From Candidatus Aerophobota bacterium (GTDB taxonomy: Bacteria; Aerophobota; Aerophobia; Aerophobales; JAGGXI01), in the NCBI GenBank assembly GCA_021163155.1, contig JAGGXI010000038.1, positions 7,731 through 71,730 of the forward strand: DNA of 64,000 nucleotides, read 5' to 3'. The notes beneath the pieces were generated by a model. The model was not told where the DNA came from, did not search any database, and was given only the letters and a program-made list of their open reading frames with translations. Positions 930-58,783 of this stretch are shown here, piece by piece. Positions within the stretch are counted from its first letter, which is position 1; the number at the start of each line of letters is the position of its first letter. Position numbers and translations under genes: made by a program.

Positions 930-2070
930 AAGAATTCTTTCCGGCACTCATCTCTTTCAGGGTGATGAAGCCTGTGTTGAAGGAGCCATAGCTGCCGGCT
1001 GCAATCTATTTGCCGGGTATCCAATTACTCCAGCTACTGAAATTTCTGAAAGACTATCCTGGAGATTATTTGACGTTGGAGGAATCTTTGTCCAGGGTGC
1101 AGATGAGCTTGATTCTTTAACTATTGTTATTGGCGCTGCTTGTGCTGGCTGGAAGTCTATGACCGCCACCTCAGGCAACGGAATATGCCTGATGCAGGAA
1201 TGCATAGGTTACGCAGCTATAACTGAAACTCCCTGCATAATTGTAGATGTGCAAAGAGCAGGCCCAGGAACAGGAGCAGCTACCAAAACTATGCAAGGGG
1301 ATGTCTATCAGGTAAGGTACGGGAGTAACGCCGATTACTCTATAATAGCACTTGCTCCAGAATCTCCACAGGAGATGTTTGACCTCACTGTGGAAGCTTT
1401 TAATCTCTCAGAGACTTATAGAGTGCCTACTTTTATTCTTGCTGATGAGATAGTTGGCCATATGAGAGAGAAAGTGGTCATTCCAGAAAAGGTAAAAATC
1501 ATCCAAAGAAAAAGAGCAAAATTCCCCCCACAGGAATTTCTTCCTTTTAAAGTAGAAAGTGATACCGATGTTCCCCCCATGCCCGCCTTTGGAGAAGGAT
1601 ATAGAATGCCAGTATCTGGCCTTACTCATACAGAAACAGGCTCCCCATCTACAGATTATGAAGTTCAGAAAAGAATGGTTTCCCGGTTGTGGAATAAAGT
1701 TGAAAAAAATGTAGAAAAGATAACCAAAATTGAGTCTGCATATCTGGAGGATGCACAAGTAATAGTTTTAGCTTATGGTTCTGTAGCAAGGTCTGCAAAG
1801 AGTGCTGTCCTTGAAGCAAGAAGACAGGGACTTAAAATAGGTTATCTTAGACTGATAACTATCTGGCCTTTTCCAGATAAAGTTATTGAAAATATTGCAA
1901 AAAGAAAGCCTAAGGCGATAATTTTTCCAGAAATGAATATGGGGAAAATGGTCAGAGAAGTAAAGAGAGTTGCTGGAGAGAGAACAAAGGTTATTTCTTT
2001 TCCTAAACCAGGGGTTGAACTTCATAAACCAAAAGAAATATATAATCTTATAAGGAGGGTAACCAATTGA
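922..2070 (+). CDS. korA: 2-oxoacid (2-oxoglutarate/pyruvate):ferredoxin oxidoreductase alpha subunit
   Basis: The 382-aa product resembles the KorA/PorA family ('GYPITPATEI', 'ILADEIVGHM'). It is translationally coupled to the delta and beta subunits. Confidence 0.85.
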   Translation: MNKRILSGTHLFQGDEACVEGAIAAGCNLFAGYPITPATEISERLSWRLFDVGGIFVQGADELDSLTIVIGAACAGWKSMTATSGNGICLMQECIGYAAITETPCIIVDVQRAGPGTGAATKTMQGDVYQVRYGSNADYSIIALAPESPQEMFDLTVEAFNLSETYRVPTFILADEIVGHMREKVVIPEKVKIIQRKRAKFPPQEFLPFKVESDTDVPPMPAFGEGYRMPVSGLTHTETGSPSTDYEVQKRMVSRLWNKVEKNVEKITKIESAYLEDAQVIVLAYGSVARSAKSAVLEARRQGLKIGYLRLITIWPFPDKVIENIAKRKPKAIIFPEMNMGKMVREVKRVAGERTKVISFPKPGVELHKPKEIYNLIRRVTN

Positions 2071-7706: not shown

Positions 7707-7837
7707 CCTCAATAAATGTGGAATCTGTGATTTTGAAATTAATCTTTCTCTTCTTACATAGATCGTTATTAATGCAAATATTACGGATTTCAAGATATTC
7801 TAAAAATCTAACAAGATGAGTTTCCTACAAAAGTTGG

Positions 7838-7872
7838 TTGACAAAAAAAGGGAATAATATAAAGATAAGGTT
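7838..7872 (+). promoter_or_regulatory. candidate sigma70 promoter (TTGACA..TATAAA) for the peptide ABC operon
   Basis: A TTGACA at 7838 is followed by an A-rich spacer and TATAAA. It lies about 170 bp upstream of the gene at 8038. Confidence 0.35.
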
Positions 7873-8037
7873 TGATTTTGATAAGGAAAAGGCTAAAAAT
7901 AAGACCAAAAGGAGGTGAGAGAATAAATATAGTTATTAGCTGGGGAGAGAGAGTTTCGGAAGAAAGAATATATTAAATAACTAAATTTTTTAAAAATCTT
8001 TTAGGGAAAATAAATAATATCAAGGAGGCTGTGAAAG

Positions 8038-12821: not shown

Positions 12822-12965
12822 GCTAATTGGCTGTTTAGTGGGTAGGGTGAGCTAATCGCCATTTGCAAAACAAGAGTTAGAGGTAATTGGGAGGCTAAAG
12901 CCTCCCCTACCCTGTAGAGAGCTTTAATAGATTGTCGAATCCTGGGCTAAAGTTAGTAGAGAGTA
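12822..12965. repeat. family-A REP-like intergenic element (core GGGAGGCTAAAGCCTCCCCTACCC plus 'ttgcaaaacaagagttagag') inserted between dppC-like and dppD-like
   Basis: Near-identical copies occur at 40945-41050 and, inverted, at 27720-27792. Confidence 0.8.
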
Positions 12966-17180: not shown

Positions 17181-17320
17181 TAATAAATCCTCAAACTCTT
17201 TTTCCTCTATCCTGTTTTTGCATGAAGAGCAGATAATGATTGTTCCTCCTTCTTTAATTGCAGAAGGAAGAATTTCTTCCGAAAAACTTTTTCGCGTCGG
17301 AGGGTTGACAAAAAAAAAAT

Positions 17321-17385
17321 TAATAGTAAACTGTTTATTGTTGACAATTATTATAAAAATGTCTACAACATAAATACTTATTTTA
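17321..17385 (+). promoter_or_regulatory. repeated promoter/operator module 'agggTTGACAaaaaaaaaattaatagtaaactgtttattgTTGACAattattataaaaa' plus GntR-type palindrome ATGTctacaACAT (17359-17371)
   Basis: About 58 bp are identical to 25831-25900. It sits immediately upstream of the GntR-family gene. Confidence 0.55.
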
Positions 17386-19470: not shown

Positions 19471-19514
19471 ATGTGTAGGTTTATTTAAGGGAGAGGAAGA
19501 GCGGAAAAGGTTTA

Positions 19515-19575
19515 TTAGCCTCCCCTACCCAGGCCAAGCACTCTAACAGTTTGCCGAATCTGGGTTAAATATATC
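19515..19575. repeat. family-A REP-like element (inverted orientation) downstream of eno
   Basis: 'agcctcccctacccaggccaagcactctaacagtttgccgaatctgggtt' is the reverse complement of the copy at 27568 and 31746. Confidence 0.75.
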
Positions 19576-25651: not shown

Positions 25652-25830
25652 TATAGGGTTTTTGTTAAAAAGTGTAAAAGTTTTAGGAAGAGAAGAATTA
25701 GGAATAAAGCCGAAAGAGAGATAAAAAACAAGTAAATTATTAGAGACCTCTGGGTATATTATGCTATAGATAGCATAATATTGTAACATAACTATGCCAC
25801 CGAAATAGTGTTAAAAGTGATTTGATACAG

Positions 25831-25906
25831 AGGGTTGACAAAAAAAAAATTAATAGTAAACTGTTTATTGTTGACAATCATTATAAAAAATGTCTGTAAT
25901 AGACAT
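25831..25906 (+). promoter_or_regulatory. second copy of the repeated promoter/operator module plus palindrome ATGTCTgtaatAGACAT (25890-25906)
   Basis: The sequence is identical to 17321-17385 except for 1-2 nt. It points toward the dctPQM TRAP genes. Confidence 0.55.
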
Positions 25907-27567: not shown

Positions 27568-27792
27568 ATTTGGCAAACTATTAGAGTGCTTGGCCTGGCT
27601 ATTGGAAAACCAATAAACCTCTTCCACCCTTCCTCTCCCTTAAGGGGGGTATAACCCTCACCTTAGTCCTCCCCCGTAAAGGGAGAGGGGAAGCGGAAGA
27701 AGTTCTGCTGGGTGAGGGTGAGGGTGACCCAGCCTCCCAATAGCCTCTAACTCTTGTTTTGCAAAGGGTGATTGAAGTCGCCCTACCCATTA
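27568..27792. repeat. full-length composite family-A REP-like element with a GC-rich internal hairpin
   Basis: It contains both arms ('tggcaaactattagagtgcttggcctgg' ... 'cagcctcccaatagcctctaactcttgttttgcaaa'). The ORF 27599..27790(-) lies inside it and is spurious. Confidence 0.8.
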
Positions 27793-39992: not shown

Positions 39993-40829
39993 TTAAAAGA
40001 AAGCAAAATCAAGAATCTCCATTAATATTGGCCTAATCTTTTTTCTTTCCACTATTAAATCGATCATCCCATGTTTCAATAAAGATTCTGATTTTTGAAA
40101 TCCATGAGGAATCTGTTGTTTGATGGTCTGTTTTATAACACGGGGACCAGCGAATCCTAAAAGAGCTCCAGGCTCTGCCAGAATAATGTCTCCTTGACCA
40201 GCAAAGCTTGCCATTACTCCTCCCATTGTAGGATGAGTAAGAAGAGAGATATAAAGCAATCCTTCACTTTTGAATCTAGCTATAGCGGCACTTGTCTTTG
40301 CCATTTGCATTAAGGAAAATAATCCCTCCTGCATTCTCGCTCCCCCTCCCGAACCAGAAATAATTAGAAGAGGATATCTTTTCTCCATAGCCTTCTCTAT
40401 AGAGAGGGTTACTCTCTCCCCCATCACTGACCCCATACTTCCCCCCATAAAGTTAAAATCGGTAACTACAACTGTTATTGCCCGACCGCCGATTTCCCCT
40501 TCTCCAGCTATAAGAGCCTCATCTAAACCTGTCCTTTCTCTACTTTTCTTTAACTTTTCTACATATTGAGGAAAGTTGAGAGGATCATCTGAATTCATCT
40601 GAAAATCATATTCTATAAAACTATTTTTATCTAAGATAATTTTTAGCCTCTCTTTAGCTCCTATACAAAAATGATAACCACATTTAGGGCAAACCTTCAT
40701 ATTGTTCTTTAAATTTTTGTTATAAATAATCTGGTGGCAATTATCACATTTAGTCCATAAACCATCAGGAATATCTATCTTTTTCTTACCTTTCTTTATT
40801 TTATTATAGGTACTTTCAAACCAGCCCAT
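39993..40829 (-). CDS. accD: acetyl-CoA carboxylase carboxyltransferase beta subunit
   Basis: An N-terminal Zn-ribbon 'CDNCHQ...CPKCGYH' is followed by a carboxyltransferase domain. Confidence 0.85.
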   Translation of the reverse strand: MGWFESTYNKIKKGKKKIDIPDGLWTKCDNCHQIIYNKNLKNNMKVCPKCGYHFCIGAKERLKIILDKNSFIEYDFQMNSDDPLNFPQYVEKLKKSRERTGLDEALIAGEGEIGGRAITVVVTDFNFMGGSMGSVMGERVTLSIEKAMEKRYPLLIISGSGGGARMQEGLFSLMQMAKTSAAIARFKSEGLLYISLLTHPTMGGVMASFAGQGDIILAEPGALLGFAGPRVIKQTIKQQIPHGFQKSESLLKHGMIDLIVERKKIRPILMEILDFAFF

Positions 40830-40944: not shown

Positions 40945-41050
40945 ACCCACTTGTGGGTAGACTAATCGCCCTTTATAAAACAAGAGTTAAAAAGCGATTG
41001 GGAGGCTAAAGCCTCCCCCTACCCAGGTGGAGAACTTTAATGAGCTCATC
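40945..41050. repeat. family-A REP-like element (core GGGAGGCTAAAGCCTCCCCCTACCC)
   Basis: It is near-identical to 12822-12913. Confidence 0.8.
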
Positions 41051-41149: not shown

Positions 41150-41250
41150 GAGGCCTTTCTTACACAGATTATTAAAAATGATTACAGCAATTTAACAAGG
41201 ATAATCTAATTTGTGTAATTTGGACTTCTATCTGCGAAATTAAAGATTTA
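41150..41250 (-). repeat. family-C repeat (inverted orientation)
   Basis: The reverse complement matches 42530-42625 ('aaatct.t.atttcgcagata.aagtccaaattacaca..' plus 'gtaatcattttaa.aatctgtgtaa'). Confidence 0.7.
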
Positions 41251-41269
41251 TCCCTTTAGAAAGAATTCT

Positions 41270-41500
41270 TTAACAGGATTTACCAGATTCTATCTTCCCC
41301 AATTTAGAAAAAATCTCTGCCTTACCTCTAATTTTTACGGCAGATATATCTCTGGTGAATTGACAAATCCAGACCTCGTCTTTGTCTAACTTTTCTGTAT
41401 GGTGAATTACGGTCTCTTTGCCTCGAGTTAAGCCTATAATAGTTACAGAATCTTCTAATGCTTTTACTACAATAAAATCGGCTAACTCTGCCTCTTCCAC
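41270..41500 (-). CDS. hypothetical small protein
   Basis: The product is 76 aa with no motif recognised. Coding status is uncertain. Confidence 0.3.
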   Translation of the reverse strand: MEEAELADFIVVKALEDSVTIIGLTRGKETVIHHTEKLDKDEVWICQFTRDISAVKIRGKAEIFSKLGKIESGKSC

Positions 41501-41589
41501 TTTATATTCACCTCTCTCCTTAAATACTTTTGATTTATCTTCGGTTAAATAATAATACAGTTTTTAATTTAGGTCAACTATGACAAATT

Positions 41590-41616
41590 GGGGGTCAGGT
41601 CTCAACATTTGACATT
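41590..41616 (+). repeat. GGGGTCAGGTCTCAACATTTGACATTT motif (left inverted copy flanking eamA)
   Basis: It is the reverse complement of 42842-42869. Related copies lie at 53949 and 56600. Confidence 0.7.
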
Positions 41617-41618
41617 TC

Positions 41619-42488
41619 TTATCCCCATATTCCTACTAAAAATACTCCTGCAAATATTGCAGTCATGCCTAAAAACGAACTTTTAGTAGGTTTTTCTTTT
41701 AAAAATAGAATACTGAGAAAAAAAGCAAACAATACTACAAGTCCTCTAATGGGAGACAATAAACTTGCTCGTTCTATTTTTAAAGCTGATAACCAAAAAA
41801 TCCAACCAATAAAGGAGCCGAAGAATCCAGATAAAATAGCTACTTCTACTCCTTTTATAGAACACTTAAGCCTTCTTTTAGCTCGACTGATTAATCCTGT
41901 GAGACCCCAAGCAATACTAATCACAACCATTAAAATAAATTGATATGCAAGGGGGTCCATTCCGTGATTAAAGCAGTATTTAGTAGGAATAACCTCAGCT
42001 ATCCCCCAAATAAGGCCTGCGGAAAGAGCCAGGATAGACCCCAATTTTGGGGTATAAAAACAGTTCTCTTCTCGTTTAGTGAGAAGATATGCTCCCCAAA
42101 CTACCAGAAAAGCCGAGAGAAATACCACAAATTTTGCTTCTTCACCCAAAAGTAGTATTGCAGCAGAAACTCCCCAGAAAGGGGCAGTATTTGCCAAAGA
42201 TGTGGCTTTGTGAACTGCAATTTTACTTATAGCGATAAGGTACAGCATCTCGCCAATAAATGAATCTAAGAATCCCCCTATAATGGCAATCAGAATAAGT
42301 TTAGGTTCAGGAAAGTCTAATCCTCCGCTTAACAAAACATAGGGAATGAAGAAAAGTAATCCAAAGAGACTTCTAATAGTCGCATAAACTGCAATATCTG
42401 TATCTCTTAAGGCAATTTTATTTATAACTAAAGATATTGCCCAAAATAGAGATGCTCCTGCGGCAAGCACAATAGGCAATGGGTTCAT
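41619..42488 (-). CDS. EamA/DMT-family transporter
   Basis: A 289-aa protein with 10 TM helices and two EamA repeats. Confidence 0.8.
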   Translation of the reverse strand: MNPLPIVLAAGASLFWAISLVINKIALRDTDIAVYATIRSLFGLLFFIPYVLLSGGLDFPEPKLILIAIIGGFLDSFIGEMLYLIAISKIAVHKATSLANTAPFWGVSAAILLLGEEAKFVVFLSAFLVVWGAYLLTKREENCFYTPKLGSILALSAGLIWGIAEVIPTKYCFNHGMDPLAYQFILMVVISIAWGLTGLISRAKRRLKCSIKGVEVAILSGFFGSFIGWIFWLSALKIERASLLSPIRGLVVLFAFFLSILFLKEKPTKSSFLGMTAIFAGVFLVGIWG

Positions 42489-42503
42489 TAGTATCTCCTC
42501 TGT

Positions 42504-42650
42504 TAGAGATTTCTAGAAAAGTCAAAAATCTCTGATTTCGCAGATAAAAGTCCAAATTACACAGATAAATTATTCTTACTAAATCAGTGTAATCATTTTA
42601 AAAATCTGTGTAATCAGAAGCCTCTGGAGATTTTTCAGAGGTCTCCTGAT
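42504..42650 (+). repeat. family-C repeat, long copy
   Basis: 'gagatttctagaaaagtcaaaaatctctgatttcgcagataaaagtccaaattacacagat...gaagcctctggagatttttcagaggtctc'. Confidence 0.8.
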
Positions 42651-42728
42651 AAATGGTTTGGTATCCTGATATTATAAAACTACTTTACTGTATATATCAG
42701 AAAAACAATTTTTATCAAATTGAGCTAT

Positions 42729-42826
42729 TTTGAGATTTCTAGAAAAGTCAAAAATCTCTGATTTCGCAGATAAAAGTCCAAATTACACAGATCAAAGGAC
42801 TCTGGAGGTTTTTTTAGAAGCTTCTT
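42729..42826 (+). repeat. family-C repeat (tandem second copy, about 225 bp after the first)
   Basis: 55 bp are identical to 42504-42570. Confidence 0.8.
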
Positions 42827-42841
42827 ATTTTATAAAATGTT

Positions 42842-42869
42842 AAATGTTGAGACCTGACCTCTATTCTCT
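42842..42869 (-). repeat. GGTCAGGTCTCAACATTTAACATTT motif (right inverted copy flanking eamA)
   Basis: It is the reverse complement of 41590-41616. Confidence 0.7.
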
Positions 42870-42880
42870 TAAATTTAAAT

Positions 42881-42915
42881 TTGACATAAAGATAGCTTTT
42901 GATAGGATTAGGGAC
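42881..42915 (+). promoter_or_regulatory. candidate sigma70 promoter TTGACAtaaagatagcttttgaTAGGAT for metG
   Basis: The hexamer spacing is appropriate and it lies 40 bp upstream of the metG start. Confidence 0.35.
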
Positions 42916-47959: not shown

Positions 47960-47979
47960 TTCTTGCTCACTTTATTTAA

Positions 47980-48073
47980 ACTCAGATTCGAAAAAGTTAA
48001 AAATCTCTGATTTCGCAGATAAAAATCGAGATTACACAGATTGAGGCCTTTGGAGGTTTTTCAGAGGCCTCTA
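47980..48073 (+). repeat. family-C repeat in the mreB-mreC intergenic region
   Basis: 'aaatctctgatttcgcagataaaaatcgagattacacagattgaggcctttggaggtttttcagaggcctc'. Confidence 0.8.
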
Positions 48074-53948: not shown

Positions 53949-53975
53949 TGGGTCAGGTCTTCAAACTTGACATAA
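53949..53975 (+). repeat. GGGTCAGGTCTTCAAACTTGACATAAA motif (left boundary of the accessory island) with an adjacent hairpin
   Basis: A direct copy lies at 56600. It is followed by the inverted repeat gtcttcaaacttgacataaat...atttatgtcgaagac. Confidence 0.65.
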
Positions 53976-54114
53976 ATATTAATTTATGGTAATGATAATT
54001 TATGTCGAAGACCATTAAGAATTTCCCATCCAGGCGCCCTTTATCATATCAGTACAAAGCATAAGGAATACAGTAGCCGCGGCAGACATCGACGTCACAA
54101 GAATTCCATCAAAA

Positions 54115-54958: not shown

Positions 54959-55351
54959 TTATTCCTCTATTGCCTTTGCGACAATTTCATCTATAACTTT
55001 AATGAATTCCTCAGCTTTCTCAAGCCAGGTCTTGATATCTTCCTTGTTGAATTCAACAAAGTCTTCATAATCTCCCCTTTGCCTGAATTCAAACATTTTA
55101 TTGTAAAAATCTCCGAATTTTTCCCCAACAACACCTGCCTTTACAAATTCTCTATTAAATAAGCTCCTTATTCCACTGTGTTTTGAAGAATAAAGATCCT
55201 TTGTTAGAAGAAGTGCAACAGATTCATAAAAGATGGCATAATATATTCTGTTGACAGTGGCAAACAGTTTTGAATTATCAAACATTATCTTTGCTTCTTC
55301 AAAGGTCTCTTTGGCTCTCTCCCTCCTGTAGTTGATAATTTTCTCTTTCAT
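54959..55351 (-). CDS. HEPN-domain protein (toxin component of a HEPN/MNT pair)
   Basis: The 130-aa product has an 'RQRGDYEDF' Rx4-6-type motif region. Its start overlaps the MNT gene stop by 4 bp. Confidence 0.75.
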   Translation of the reverse strand: MKEKIINYRRERAKETFEEAKIMFDNSKLFATVNRIYYAIFYESVALLLTKDLYSSKHSGIRSLFNREFVKAGVVGEKFGDFYNKMFEFRQRGDYEDFVEFNKEDIKTWLEKAEEFIKVIDEIVAKAIEE

Positions 55352-55695
55352 TTAACAGGCACTCCTTCTTTGTCAATATTCCAGTGAATGGGCATAGCTT
55401 TTGCCAATGGTGATTTCCAGAAGTTGGTAGCTTCTATAAGGATTCCAAATACGACATTGTACTTTAACTCTATTCTGAAGCTCATACTGAAAATCTTTTC
55501 TCTTAAACTGTCATTGACATCACATTCAAGTAGAATTAATACATCAATATCCGATTCCTCATCAAAATCTCCTCTTACCTTAGAACCGTAAAGAATGACC
55601 CCAGCATCTGGGAATCTTTCCAGCACTCTTTTTTTTAACTCCTGTAAAGCTTTTTTCTCATTTTCTTTTAATTTCAACTCTTCTACATTCTTCAT
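55348..55695 (-). CDS. minimal nucleotidyltransferase (MNT, pol-beta superfamily; antitoxin/AMPylase component)
   Basis: 'YGSKVRGDFDEESDIDVLIL' matches the GSx9-13Dx[DE] motif. Confidence 0.85.
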   Translation of the reverse strand: MKNVEELKLKENEKKALQELKKRVLERFPDAGVILYGSKVRGDFDEESDIDVLILLECDVNDSLREKIFSMSFRIELKYNVVFGILIEATNFWKSPLAKAMPIHWNIDKEGVPVK

Positions 55696-56150
55696 TTTCT
55701 TACCTCAATCATCGGAACAAAGCATTCCATCAAACTTAATCCACCATGAAAATATATACTGTATTTTCCCGGTACAGGCCATATATATCGGGATTTCACA
55801 AGATAATAACCAGAAAAATCTACAACATAACCATCTTGCACCAGATGAGAAGCATCTGCTTGATTCATAGAGATGTATCTATTGCTGCCAAAAACATCCC
55901 TTAAAGCTCTCTTCTTGTTATCCGGAACTGGGAAAGCAAATCCAGCTTCTGAACGAATATACCCATGGTCAGATAGAATTATAATCTTGCTGGTTTTAAG
56001 TTTAGTTGCCAATTCCATCACGATTTTTTCTGTAGTTTCATGCATATTCTCAAGAGATGAGATTACAGTATGCCCTACCTGAATTTTGTCCAGCAAACAA
56101 TCCGGAAAATAAGACCAGATATATTTTTCCCTACCCGTAATCCTTATCAT
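55692..56150 (-). CDS. short alkaline-phosphatase-superfamily protein resembling the C-terminal part of a PglZ domain
   Basis: 'ILSDHGY' and the C-terminal 'HGGLSLMECFVPMIEV' fit the PglZ family. The protein is only 152 aa, bounded by a stop immediately upstream. Its start overlaps the MNT gene by 4 bp. Confidence 0.4.
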   Translation of the reverse strand: MIRITGREKYIWSYFPDCLLDKIQVGHTVISSLENMHETTEKIVMELATKLKTSKIIILSDHGYIRSEAGFAFPVPDNKKRALRDVFGSNRYISMNQADASHLVQDGYVVDFSGYYLVKSRYIWPVPGKYSIYFHGGLSLMECFVPMIEVRK

Positions 56151-56599: not shown

Positions 56600-56616
56600 G
56601 GGTCAGGTCTTCAAGA
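56600..56616 (+). repeat. GGTCAGGTCTTCAAGAG motif (right boundary of the accessory island)
   Basis: Direct copy of the motif at 53949. Confidence 0.6.
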
Positions 56617-58075
56617 GGCCTGTTCTCTTATTGAACTCTTTAATTAGTTTATCTATTTTACCAACTTGTTTATGAATATTACCCCAATAGTCTTCACAAT
56701 CATACCATTGAGCATTTAACTCATCCAATTCTTTACCCTGCTGTTCTATCCAGGTGTAGTATTTAAGGTTATGAATTCGTTTTTTATCATAATAAGTTAA
56801 CTCTTCCATATAATCAGTAGATAACCCAAGTAAATGTTGGTGATAGTCAACAGCAGCATCTATCTTGCCATATGAATTATTATATTCTTCTTCCATTTCT
56901 TTTAATCTTGATTTATAAAGCTCCATAGAATCTGTAAATACAGTCATAACTATATCATTCTTAGTTAATTCATAATACTTAGCAAACTTAATAGCCATTA
57001 TTACATTAGCCGCACTGGAAATACCTAATAAAGGCAACTGTTCAATTAATCTCTTAGAAACATTCATTTCTTTTAAATAATCTTTGCCAGCGGGTTCATT
57101 AAATACCCGCACCAGTCCCATGCTATCATTATCATCAACATCAATTATCATATCGGTATTCTTTACATTGTGAATCCAGGGTACGTGTTTGTCACCAATA
57201 CCTTCAATCCTATGAGCACCATAACCATTAGATAATAAAGTTGGACACTGCAGGGCTTCACCAACAACAATTTTACTGGTTGGATACAACTCTTTTAAGT
57301 AATCTCCGCATCCTAAAGTACCTGAAGAACCAGAAGTTAAAACAACTCCGGCATATTTATCATCTGGACCCATTACCTCTTTTAAAACTTCTTCCATAGC
57401 ATGACCGGTAACTTCATAATGCCAGAGATGATTACCAAATTCATCAAACTGGTTAAATACTACTACATTATCTCTTGTTTTTTTTAATTCCCAGGATTTG
57501 TCAAAAATCTCTTTTACGTTGCTTTCACTTCCAGGAGTAGCAATAACTTCTCCTGCCACTTTAGTTAGCCAGTCAAAGCGTTCTTGACTCATCCCTTCGG
57601 GTAAGATAGCAATTGATTCACAGGATAATAAATCAGCATCATAAGCACCGCCCCGACAATAATTACCTGTAGAAGGCCAAACTGCCTTATGAAAAGTAGG
57701 GTCAAATTGTCCAGTAATCAGTCTGGGTACTAAACAACCAAAGGTAGCTCCAACCTTATGAGAGCCGGTTGGAAACCATTTACCCACTAAAGCAATGATT
57801 TTAGCGTCAACTCCTGTAAGTTCTTTGGGTAATTCTATATAATTGACTCCACTATACAAACCACCATTTTTCACTGGTTCATTTTTCCAGGTAACCCTGA
57901 AAAGATTATATGAATTAATGTCCCATAACCCTATATTTTTAAGTTTATTTTTAATCCTATCAGGAACAAGTTCAGGATTCTCCATCTCCTCAAAAGTGGG
58001 AATGATAATATTCTTCTCTTTAGCTCTTTTTATTGTCCTTTCAAGTTGTTCTTCATTAATAGTTAAATCAATCAT
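56603..58075 (-). CDS. PLP-dependent enzyme, fold type II (tryptophan-synthase-beta/threonine-synthase-like) with a roughly 100-aa N-terminal extension
   Basis: 'FPTGSHKVGATFG' is the PLP-lysine motif (compare ThrC PTGSFKDR). Length is 490 aa. Confidence 0.6.
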   Translation of the reverse strand: MIDLTINEEQLERTIKRAKEKNIIIPTFEEMENPELVPDRIKNKLKNIGLWDINSYNLFRVTWKNEPVKNGGLYSGVNYIELPKELTGVDAKIIALVGKWFPTGSHKVGATFGCLVPRLITGQFDPTFHKAVWPSTGNYCRGGAYDADLLSCESIAILPEGMSQERFDWLTKVAGEVIATPGSESNVKEIFDKSWELKKTRDNVVVFNQFDEFGNHLWHYEVTGHAMEEVLKEVMGPDDKYAGVVLTSGSSGTLGCGDYLKELYPTSKIVVGEALQCPTLLSNGYGAHRIEGIGDKHVPWIHNVKNTDMIIDVDDNDSMGLVRVFNEPAGKDYLKEMNVSKRLIEQLPLLGISSAANVIMAIKFAKYYELTKNDIVMTVFTDSMELYKSRLKEMEEEYNNSYGKIDAAVDYHQHLLGLSTDYMEELTYYDKKRIHNLKYYTWIEQQGKELDELNAQWYDCEDYWGNIHKQVGKIDKLIKEFNKRTGLLKT

Positions 58076-58399
58076 TTTTCATACTCCTCATTTATTTTAA
58101 AAAGTCTCAAAGCCCTGATTATATGTTTCTCTTGAATTCGCTTCTATACTTTATTCATTCATTATTTTATAGCAAGACCTTCTTTTTTCTTACCGTTTAC
58201 TTTACTGTCTCCTTCAGATTTTAACTTTATTTTAATAAAAATCCAGTAGATTGACAACCAACTTTTATAGAAAATTCATCTTATTAGATTTTTAGAATAT
58301 TTAGAATATTTTGAAATCCGTAATATTTGCATTAACAACGATCCATATAAGAAGAGAAAGATTAATTTCAAAATCACAGATTCCACATTTAGGGTATGG

Positions 58400-58686: not shown

Positions 58687-58783
58687 TTGAGATTTCTGAA
58701 AAAATCAGAAATCTCTGATTTCGTAGATAAAAATCGAGATTACACAGATTAGAGGCCTCTGAAGGTTTTTCAGAGATCTCTTA
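58687..58783 (+). repeat. family-C repeat immediately upstream of gspE
   Basis: 'gagatttctgaaaaaatcagaaatctctgatttcgtagataaaaatcgagattacacagattagaggcctctgaaggtttttcagagatctc'. Confidence 0.8.

Follow-up and report, generated by a model that had tools for sequence, protein, structure and literature searches.

Terminal inverted repeats of the TIRtron family on either side of an EamA transporter gene in Candidatus Aerophobetes

The DNA analysed here, a stretch of 64,000 nt from a contig of Candidatus Aerophobetes that we call the window, carries a transporter gene, eamA, between two facing copies of a short repeat. These repeats are genuine transposon relics: they are terminal inverted repeats (TIRs) of the elements known as TIRtrons, and an unannotated repeat of an uncultured phylum is now placed in a defined mobile-element family. 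Movement or regulation of eamA by the TIRs is not demonstrated by the data. The two copies are solo TIRs. The arrangement of TIR a (the left copy) and eamA is probably old and of vertical descent, shows no sign of a promoter role for eamA, and was probably lost in a sister clade by deletion. What makes the family noteworthy is the invariance of its TIR across phyla, an apparently built-in promoter, and its side effects on host genes.

RAYT-like genes flanked by long terminal inverted repeats, and not by repetitive extragenic palindromes (REPs), were described by Di Nocera, De Gregorio and Rocco in 2013; the genes were named TIRYTs and the units TIRtrons (PMC3733652). Many of those TIRs share the sequence GGGGWSAS, and TIR copies are found as singles, dimers or groups (PMC3733652). 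Most TIRYTs belong to subclass 2.1 of TnpA_Y1 and have C-terminal Bac_DnaA_C or helix-turn-helix (HTH) domains (Quentin et al. 2018, PMC6006769). The left repeat in the window, TIR a, begins with GGGGTCAG, which fits GGGGWSAS, and the repeats therefore belong to this known, barely studied family; the right repeat, TIR b, begins with GAGGTCAG, one change away.

An earlier note, made from the sequence alone, had described nearly perfect inverted copies around eamA, and both direct reading and a repeat finder bear this out. The motif GGTCAGGTCTCAACATTT(G/A)ACATTT occurs at 41593-41617 on the plus strand and at 42835-42859 on the minus strand, with 24 of 25 positions identical; the left copy reads GGTCAGGTCTCAACATTTGACATTT, and the right copy is its reverse complement with one G>A change. 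Read slightly further, 41590-41617 is GGGGGTCAGGTCTCAACATTTGACATTT and the reverse complement of 42833-42861 is GAGGTCAGGTCTCAACATTTAACATTT. The repeat finder gave 42-nt arms (41576-41617 and 42835-42876, 79%) with a 25-nt core holding one mismatch; the outward extension of the arms, made of alternating A/T matches, does not look convincing. Measured against the 24-mer consensus of the family, GGGGTCAGGTCTCAACATTTGACA, the left copy (41591-41614) has no mismatches, the right copy (42838-42861) has two, and a third copy on the plus strand (53949-53972) has five. Matches to the 24-mer at six or fewer mismatches were absent from 20 shuffles of the window and from 582 kb of unrelated loci, orthologous eamA loci excepted.

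The two TIRs lie 1223 nt apart with no transposase gene inside, and they enclose, as the earlier note had it, eamA and two copies of a second repeat, family C (42503-42569 and 42729-42795; a repeat of 67 nt or more, 97% identical, 226 nt apart). A tblastn search of the window with three TIRYT proteins found no transposase remnant between the TIRs, the sole match being a stub at 54009-54101. The window holds single TIR copies only, at three to four per 64 kb. Target-site duplications had been proposed as a check; they were looked for at the outer ends of the repeats and none was found (flanks ...CAAATTG/GGGG and CCTC/TATTCTC). Their absence is not diagnostic, because Y1 transposases such as those of IS200/IS605 make no target-site duplication.

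The identity of the repeats is best seen in other genomes. A scan of one genome per GTDB species with the pattern GGTCAGGTCTYMAMNNTTRACA matched at least 116 contigs, against a chance expectation of about 17 matches calculated for uniform base composition. The counts in this paragraph and the next refer to the matches listed. By their record titles these come from at least ten phyla, and the titles include Atribacterota, Desulfobacterota, Planctomycetia, Omnitrophota, Aminicenantes, Clostridia, Cloacimonadota, Nitrospirota, Verrucomicrobiales and Aerophobetes; the TIR consensus across them is (A/T)GGGGTCAGGTCTCAACATTTGACA. The 116 loci hold 215 copies that form 101 adjacent pairs, 72 of them inward, 15 outward and 14 direct. 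Spacers of the inward pairs are bimodal, at 4-162 nt and at 965-1004 nt with a few longer ones. Dimers with a spacer of 162 nt or less account for 59 of the 72 inward pairs, and grouped arrays occur in two loci (L019 and L087). On its own a TIR does not fold (-1.0 kcal/mol, z -0.27); the dimers give long, perfect hairpins (-32.5 kcal/mol, z -15). Carriage by phages was seen in only 2 matches among 2.9 million viral contigs.

An open reading frame (ORF) of about 320 aa that starts MARPLRI.., or a decayed form of it, is present in 12 of the 13 gene-sized inward pairs; these 12 pairs are spaced 965-1489 nt apart and come from 12 other genomes. The protein has PF01797 (Y1_Tnp) at its N-terminus and PF08299 (Bac_DnaA_C) at its C-terminus, and scores just under the cut-off of NF047646 (REP-associated tyrosine transposase). 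Eleven of these proteins share an invariant N-H-x-H (HUH) motif and Y-x-H-x-N-P. The part of the earlier note that read the repeats as terminal inverted repeats thus stands as to their nature, since the same TIRs flank a Y1_Tnp/DnaA_C gene in inward orientation. When the gene-sized gaps (600-2500 nt) between adjacent TIRs in other genomes are sorted by orientation, a TIRYT is present in 12 inward, 2 direct and no outward gaps and lacking in 1 inward, 10 outward and 5 direct ones. The enzyme of the family combines a Y1 HUH transposase with a helix-turn-helix domain of the DnaA_C type, and its TIRs usually face inward, either 4-160 nt apart as a hairpin dimer resembling a miniature inverted-repeat transposable element (MITE) or REPIN, or about 1 kb apart around the transposase gene. 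The copies in Candidatus Aerophobetes appear to be few and fossil.

The TIR also appears to supply signals to the gene that it flanks. In six TIRtrons picked out by motif, the TTGACA of the TIR is 28-34 nt upstream of the ATG (29 nt in four). Several of the six, as well as the third copy in the window, read TTGACA, then 17 nt, a -10 box of the form TAnnAT, and another 6 nt before the ATG, a layout which implies that TTGACA of the upstream TIR would act as the -35 box of a leaderless transposase promoter. At the other end, several TIRYT ORFs finish with ..NVET and a stop codon encoded by AATGTTGAGACCTGA inside the downstream TIR. The text of PMC3733652 and of PMC6006769 does not describe a near-identical 24-mer across many phyla, a TIR-internal -35 box with a leaderless transposase gene, or a stop codon within the downstream TIR, nor does it report TIRYT or TIRtron TIRs in Aerophobetes.

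Close relatives of the window permit the history of the eamA locus to be followed (coordinates in Table 1). The same arrangement is found in contigs of the same species (L001-L005, L200, L211), and TIR b is identical in L001-L004, L200 and L211. In another lineage (L198/L199; EamA 80% identical) mtrB comes after eamA, and TIR a occupies the same place (23/24). Three relatives lack eamA and keep ispG-fer4-accD-mtrB and metG: L122 (MetG 85% identical), L201 (TRAP 89%) and L210 (GCA_034659655.1; MetG 83%). A metagenome scan with MetG found only L122 and L123 as close relatives. The eamA segment is thus polymorphic, which the earlier note had suggested as a test of a mobile unit. The polymorphism does not end at the outer ends of the TIRs. 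In a five-way alignment the eamA-less alleles join at the 9-mer ATTTGACAT, of which the window has two copies in the same direction: one is the inner end of TIR a and the other is in the -35 region of metG. L210 and L201 read ..AACATTTGACAT/AAAGA.., in which 12 nt equal to the TIR inner end are fused to the -10 side of the metG promoter; shuffles scoring as well as the match to AACATTTGACAT numbered 0/2000 for L210 and 4/2000 for L201. L210 also shares the AAATTGG flank at equal distance from the mtrB -35 box.

A join at a 9-nt direct repeat argues for deletion in the relatives and not for excision from TIR to TIR, and such a deletion would need no transposase. An insertion that duplicates 9 nt is not the mode of Y1 enzymes such as those of IS200/IS605, and it would give the segment ends other than the TIRs. 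Site patterns in mtrB point the same way. With two outgroups, the window and L198 share 0 derived sites, L198 and the eamA-less clade share 3, and the window and the eamA-less clade share 2; the eamA-bearing genomes are therefore not sisters, and one loss is more parsimonious than two gains. More distant relatives (EamA 48% in L212, MetG 68% in L213-215, TRAP 78-82% in L202-207) have other gene neighbourhoods and so cannot polarise the event. We infer that the event was a loss, and that the TIRs arrived as transposon ends without carrying eamA. On this account the arrangement of TIR a and eamA would be old and vertically inherited, being common to the window and the lineage with the 80% identical EamA; the gene would have been lost in the clade of L122, L201 and L210 by deletion between the two copies of ATTTGACAT, after which the metG -35 box of L201 and L210 would have come to lie within a 12-nt stretch identical to the TIR inner end. 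A clean TIR-to-TIR indel was considered for L122 (41581-42875 replaced by 14 nt, within 10-14 nt of both TIRs) and rejected, as L210 and L201 retain the TIR inner end.

Table 1. Features at the eamA locus and other TIR and family-C copies. Positions are those of the window unless a locus is named.
Feature	Position	Strand	Description
accD	39993-40829	-	minus-strand order accD, mtrB, eamA
mtrB (TRAP)	41270-41500	-	PF02081, E 5e-32; directly outside TIR a
mtrB promoter	41577-41549	-	TTGACC-17-TATTAT (promoter scan); kept in L122, L198, L201, L210
TIR a	41591-41615	+	solo TIR, GGGGTCAGGTCTCAACATTTGACA(T); inner end 3 nt from the eamA stop codon
Direct repeat 1	41607-41615	+	ATTTGACAT, inner end of TIR a; junction in eamA-less alleles
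eamA	41619-42488	-	DMT/EamA transporter, 289 aa; PF00892, E 4.8e-36
eamA leader	42489-42837	-	about 350 nt; two family-C MITE-like elements and a predicted promoter
Family C, long form	~42504-42647		in the eamA leader
Family C, short form	~42730-42824		in the eamA leader
TIR b	42838-42861	-	solo TIR, GAGGTCAGGTCTCAACATTTAACA; faces TIR a; 350 nt upstream of the eamA ATG
Direct repeat 2	42879-42887	+	ATTTGACAT, containing the -35 box of the metG promoter
metG promoter	42881-42908	+	TTGACA-16-TAGGAT (promoter scan); TIR b 17 nt upstream (19 nt counted from the outer end of the 24-mer)
metG	start 42954	+	beyond TIR b
TIR c	53949-54101	+	TIR 53949-53972 (TTCAAAC variant), then TTGACA-17-TAATGA-6-ATG (ATG 54002) and TIRYT stub
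TIR d	56600-56614	+	partial TIR, outer 15 nt, GGGTCAGGTCTTCAA
Family C, further copies	47979-48062, 58687-58770	+	
Family C, further copy	41160-41257	-	
Family C in L122	2365-2450		
Family C in L201	~1600-1770		

Several observations weigh against an account in which solo TIRs merely accompany a gene that was later deleted. TIR a and TIR b face each other like the ends of one element, and eamA reads from b to a with its stop codon 3 nt from a, as a TIRYT gene does in a TIRtron; minus the family-C sequence and the intervening 84 nt, as in the one-copy allele of L004, its ATG would be about 30 nt from TIR b. On the eamA side, either solo TIR 'expects' a partner. Independent insertions would not predict as much as this geometry shows. 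The L198 contig ends 313 nt upstream of eamA, short of the TIR b site. The junction in L122 is the metG-type version, TAAATTTGACAT, and more than one event may therefore be involved. The direction of loss stands on thin ground, five informative sites in a 228-nt gene. When the window is compared with L198, TIR a is 23/24 identical and the third codon positions of eamA are 80% identical; the excess has a calculated P of about 0.03 under neutrality and hints at a constraint not expected of a pure fossil. Identity over all 118 nt of the spacer is 91%, and the conservation of TIR a may thus reflect promoter and terminator constraint and not TIR function. Finally, L210 has 13 GC-rich nucleotides in place of the TIR outer half; a decayed outer half would fit their position and length, and is not claimed here as the similarity to the TIR is non-significant (490/2000 shuffles equal).

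In a different history, TIR b, eamA and TIR a are or were a single non-autonomous unit with eamA where the transposase would be. A TIRYT acting in trans would have put this unit between the promoters of mtrB and metG in an ancestor of this Aerophobetes clade. We regard it as unlikely that the segment once moved as such a transposase-less TIRtron, and that TIRYT-type enzymes can in this way mobilise ordinary cargo. The inward orientation, gene direction and stop-codon position do mimic those of TIRtrons, and the 1223-nt spacing belongs to the gene-containing class. Other genes lie within TIR pairs in L067 (a TIRYT with a 169-aa ORF) and L044 (HigB/HTH genes with an IS110 fragment). EamA has no close relative outside the clade (49% identity or less), its distant homologues occur in other contexts, and distant relatives of the genome have other genes beside metG or mtrB, so that eamA must have arrived at the site at some point. 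Two TIRs within 1.3 kb have an estimated p of about 0.02-0.08 if insertions are independent and unclustered; TIRs do cluster locally in other genomes, which makes independence a poor null. What speaks against the cargo history is that the arrangement is known from one locus only: in all collections searched, EamA proteins of at least 80% identity are confined to the mtrB-metG locus and no second copy of the unit was found. In the eamA-less alleles L210 and L201 the inner end of TIR a is still there, and the junction falls in the direct repeat ATTTGACAT and not where the TIRs end on the outside. Inward pairs with cargo only are rare, because just 1 of 16 transposase-less gene-sized gaps in other genomes is inward, and the window is without an intact TIRYT. 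The cargo gene that the earlier note had entertained is accordingly left unproven.

The same note had offered a conserved regulatory module instead, with the motif as a binding site or promoter element for eamA, mtrB or metG and the right copy driving eamA. We consider this very improbable. TTGACA does look like a working -35 box for transposase genes in TIRtrons and in copy c, and the metG -35 box of L210 and L201 falls in the 12-nt stretch equal to the TIR inner end; the box proposed earlier is to this extent real. For eamA it is not, since neither TTGACA in TIR a nor TTAACA in TIR b has a -10 box at 16-18 nt in a promoter scan, which instead places the best eamA candidate (CTGATA-18-TATAAT, 42700-42671) between the family-C copies. 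Both window copies lie just upstream of the mtrB or metG promoter, and TIR a is well kept between the window and L198; yet the distance from the outer end of the 24-mer to the -35 box is 13 nt for mtrB and 19 nt for metG, and L122 keeps both promoters without a recognisable TIR. Moreover, the 24-mer is found in at least ten phyla, where it accompanies a transposase gene or, in unrelated contexts, makes up hairpin dimers. That the likeness arose by chance in AT-rich intergenic DNA is barely conceivable: the low complexity of the flanks is all that favours it, and the 24/25 match, its absence from 20 shuffles and the identical sequence in at least 116 foreign contigs all speak against it.

Compared with TIRtrons as described, the repeats agree in the GGGGWSAS outer end, in flanking (elsewhere) a RAYT-like Y1 gene with a Bac_DnaA_C/HTH C-terminus, in occurring as singles, dimers and groups, and in a TIR that is itself non-palindromic. 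They differ in that the pair here encloses eamA and not a transposase, both copies being solo, and in that the window retains no more of a TIRYT than a stub. REP/REPIN-RAYT systems (Nunvar 2010; Bertels & Rainey 2011; Ton-Hoang 2012) likewise have a single-copy Y1 gene between inverted repeats, with dispersed inward doublets that form long hairpins and no target-site duplications; such doublets were seen in other genomes and not in the window, with its 1223 nt between the two copies. In contrast to the REP unit, a short palindrome with a GTAG/CGTC tag, the TIR has neither an internal hairpin nor a GTAG or CGTC tag, and the TIRYT protein falls below the NF047646 cut-off and has an extra DnaA_C domain. 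IS200/IS605 elements of the IS608 type and their cargo derivatives share the HUH/Y1 chemistry and the expected lack of target-site duplication, and any DNA between two recognised ends is in principle excisable. Their ends are not inverted repeats but subterminal hairpins on one strand that differ from each other; here TnpB is absent, and nothing indicates excision of the eamA segment at its ends. MITEs and composite transposons with passengers also have two inverted ends around a non-transposase gene and no transposase inside, but the present case has no target-site duplication, a single copy, and a polymorphic junction away from the ends.

A nearly invariant 24-bp TIR with a transposase of about 320 aa (Y1/DnaA_C) in at least ten phyla offers a convenient test system for DNA movement. 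The one known test of whether RAYT or TIRYT enzymes move DNA is that of E. coli TnpA_REP, in vitro. The effects on the host are of three kinds: a 9-nt piece of a TIR served as a deletion end point by which, on the reading favoured here, a transporter gene was removed; in the alleles so formed in L201 and L210, metG, an essential gene, has a -35 region equal to the TIR inner end; and at another place in the window the stop codon of a gene comes from a TIR. If eamA did travel as cargo, doubtful as this is, it would represent a new route of gene mobility by HUH transposases, and TIR-lined toxin-antitoxin clusters as well as the HEPN/MNT island of the window could reflect the same cassette-like shuffling.

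That island was said in the earlier note to be bounded by the same motif class, which is correct: two plus-strand copies of GGGTCAGGTCTTCAA, 53950-53964 and 56600-56614, flank the HEPN/nucleotidyltransferase genes. Behind the first of these copies, TIR c, lies the only TIRYT gene of the window, a frameshifted N-terminal stub at 54002-54101 (tblastn RPLRISHPGALYHIS, E 0.019) that has its frameshift at codon 2-3 and is recognisable to about 54101; its promoter spacing is that of intact TIRtrons. Downstream of the stub, unrelated sequence replaces the remainder of the element and runs into the HEPN/nucleotidyltransferase genes (54959-55695). A weak PglZ fragment (55692-56150) comes next, and then what is by eye an apparent small HTH gene. 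TIR d supplies the last codons (..LLKT) and the TGA stop of a PALP-domain ORF on the minus strand (56603-58075), and TIRYT ORFs stop in the downstream TIR in the same frame as this ORF does in TIR d. The native C-terminus of the PALP-domain enzyme may thus have been replaced by TIR d.

Passengers of other kinds were seen in the family at large. In L067 (3149-4685) a TIRtron of 1489 nt has the extra 169-aa ORF, a possible passenger without a Pfam match, after its upstream TIR and before the TIRYT; in L044 Pfam identifies HigB/HTH toxin-antitoxin genes and an IS110 fragment between inward TIRs. TIRs from several phyla are interspersed with small toxin-antitoxin or defence-like ORFs, as in L019 (3663-7504), L044 (269-2373) and L087 (380-1899). 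By eye these ORFs are PIN-, MNT/HEPN- and HicAB-like, and Pfam confirms HigB and its HTH partner in L044. Some small ORFs associated with TIRs have TTGACA-17-TATATT promoters that borrow the TIR -35 box. Within the TIR, positions 11-24 (41601-41614 in the window; also in L007, L038, L053 and other loci) form two hexamers, T(C/T)(C/A)ACA-N-TTGACA. Two common variants, TCCACA and TTCACA, are similar to the DnaA box TTATCCACA in its 3' half, and a DnaA_C-like domain is part of the transposase. Quentin et al. (2018, PMC6006769) set only the outer GGGGWSAS against the DnaA box and noted no resemblance.

The protein encoded by eamA is identical to one labelled by NCBI as a DMT family transporter of Candidatus Aerophobetes. 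Its relatives are P0003 (96%, same species) and P0002 (80%), with all others at 49% identity or less. The GC content of eamA is 40%, and that of its neighbours 33-39%; a foreign origin was considered, and the difference is no evidence for it. No known RNAs turned up in the window, either with Rfam at gathering thresholds or in a tRNA scan. The next gene downstream of eamA is mtrB, both in the window and in L198 (L198 1302-1526); mtrB is found in more distant Aerophobetes (L202, L205-L207) beside a LysE exporter gene or upstream of trpB-like/trpE/trpG/trpD genes. In B. subtilis, TRAP controls the EamA-type gene ycbK. An analogous control of eamA by TRAP was considered and dropped, because the whole window contains no run of six or more (G/U)AG triplets.

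Family C is a MITE-like repeat with a long form (about 145 nt) and a short form (about 95 nt), terminal hairpins, and an internal inverted repeat CTGATTTCGCAGAT../..ATCTGTGTAATCAG. In L201 a copy is inserted exactly between the mtrB and metG promoters. The eamA leader of L004 has one family-C copy and not two, which is either real or an assembly collapse, and in L211 the first copy contains an extra palindrome of about 30 nt. About 20 nt before the eamA ATG, at TAACAG, the window has family C (42489-42510), and L198 (1-313) has at this very point an insertion of a different repeat family, of a type that recurs in the window at 19499-19572, 27555, 31746 and 38522. The site resembles a hot spot for insertions. 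Short intergenic repeats are unusually abundant in the genome. Further examples are a 95-nt inverted pair at 7713-7881 and 58214-58391 (95%), the AATCGCC..AACAAGAGTTA family at 12845-12896, 27731-27773 and 40955-40989, and a 77-nt direct repeat at 17283-17359 and 25813-25889 that carries two TTGACA boxes and lies upstream of two genes.

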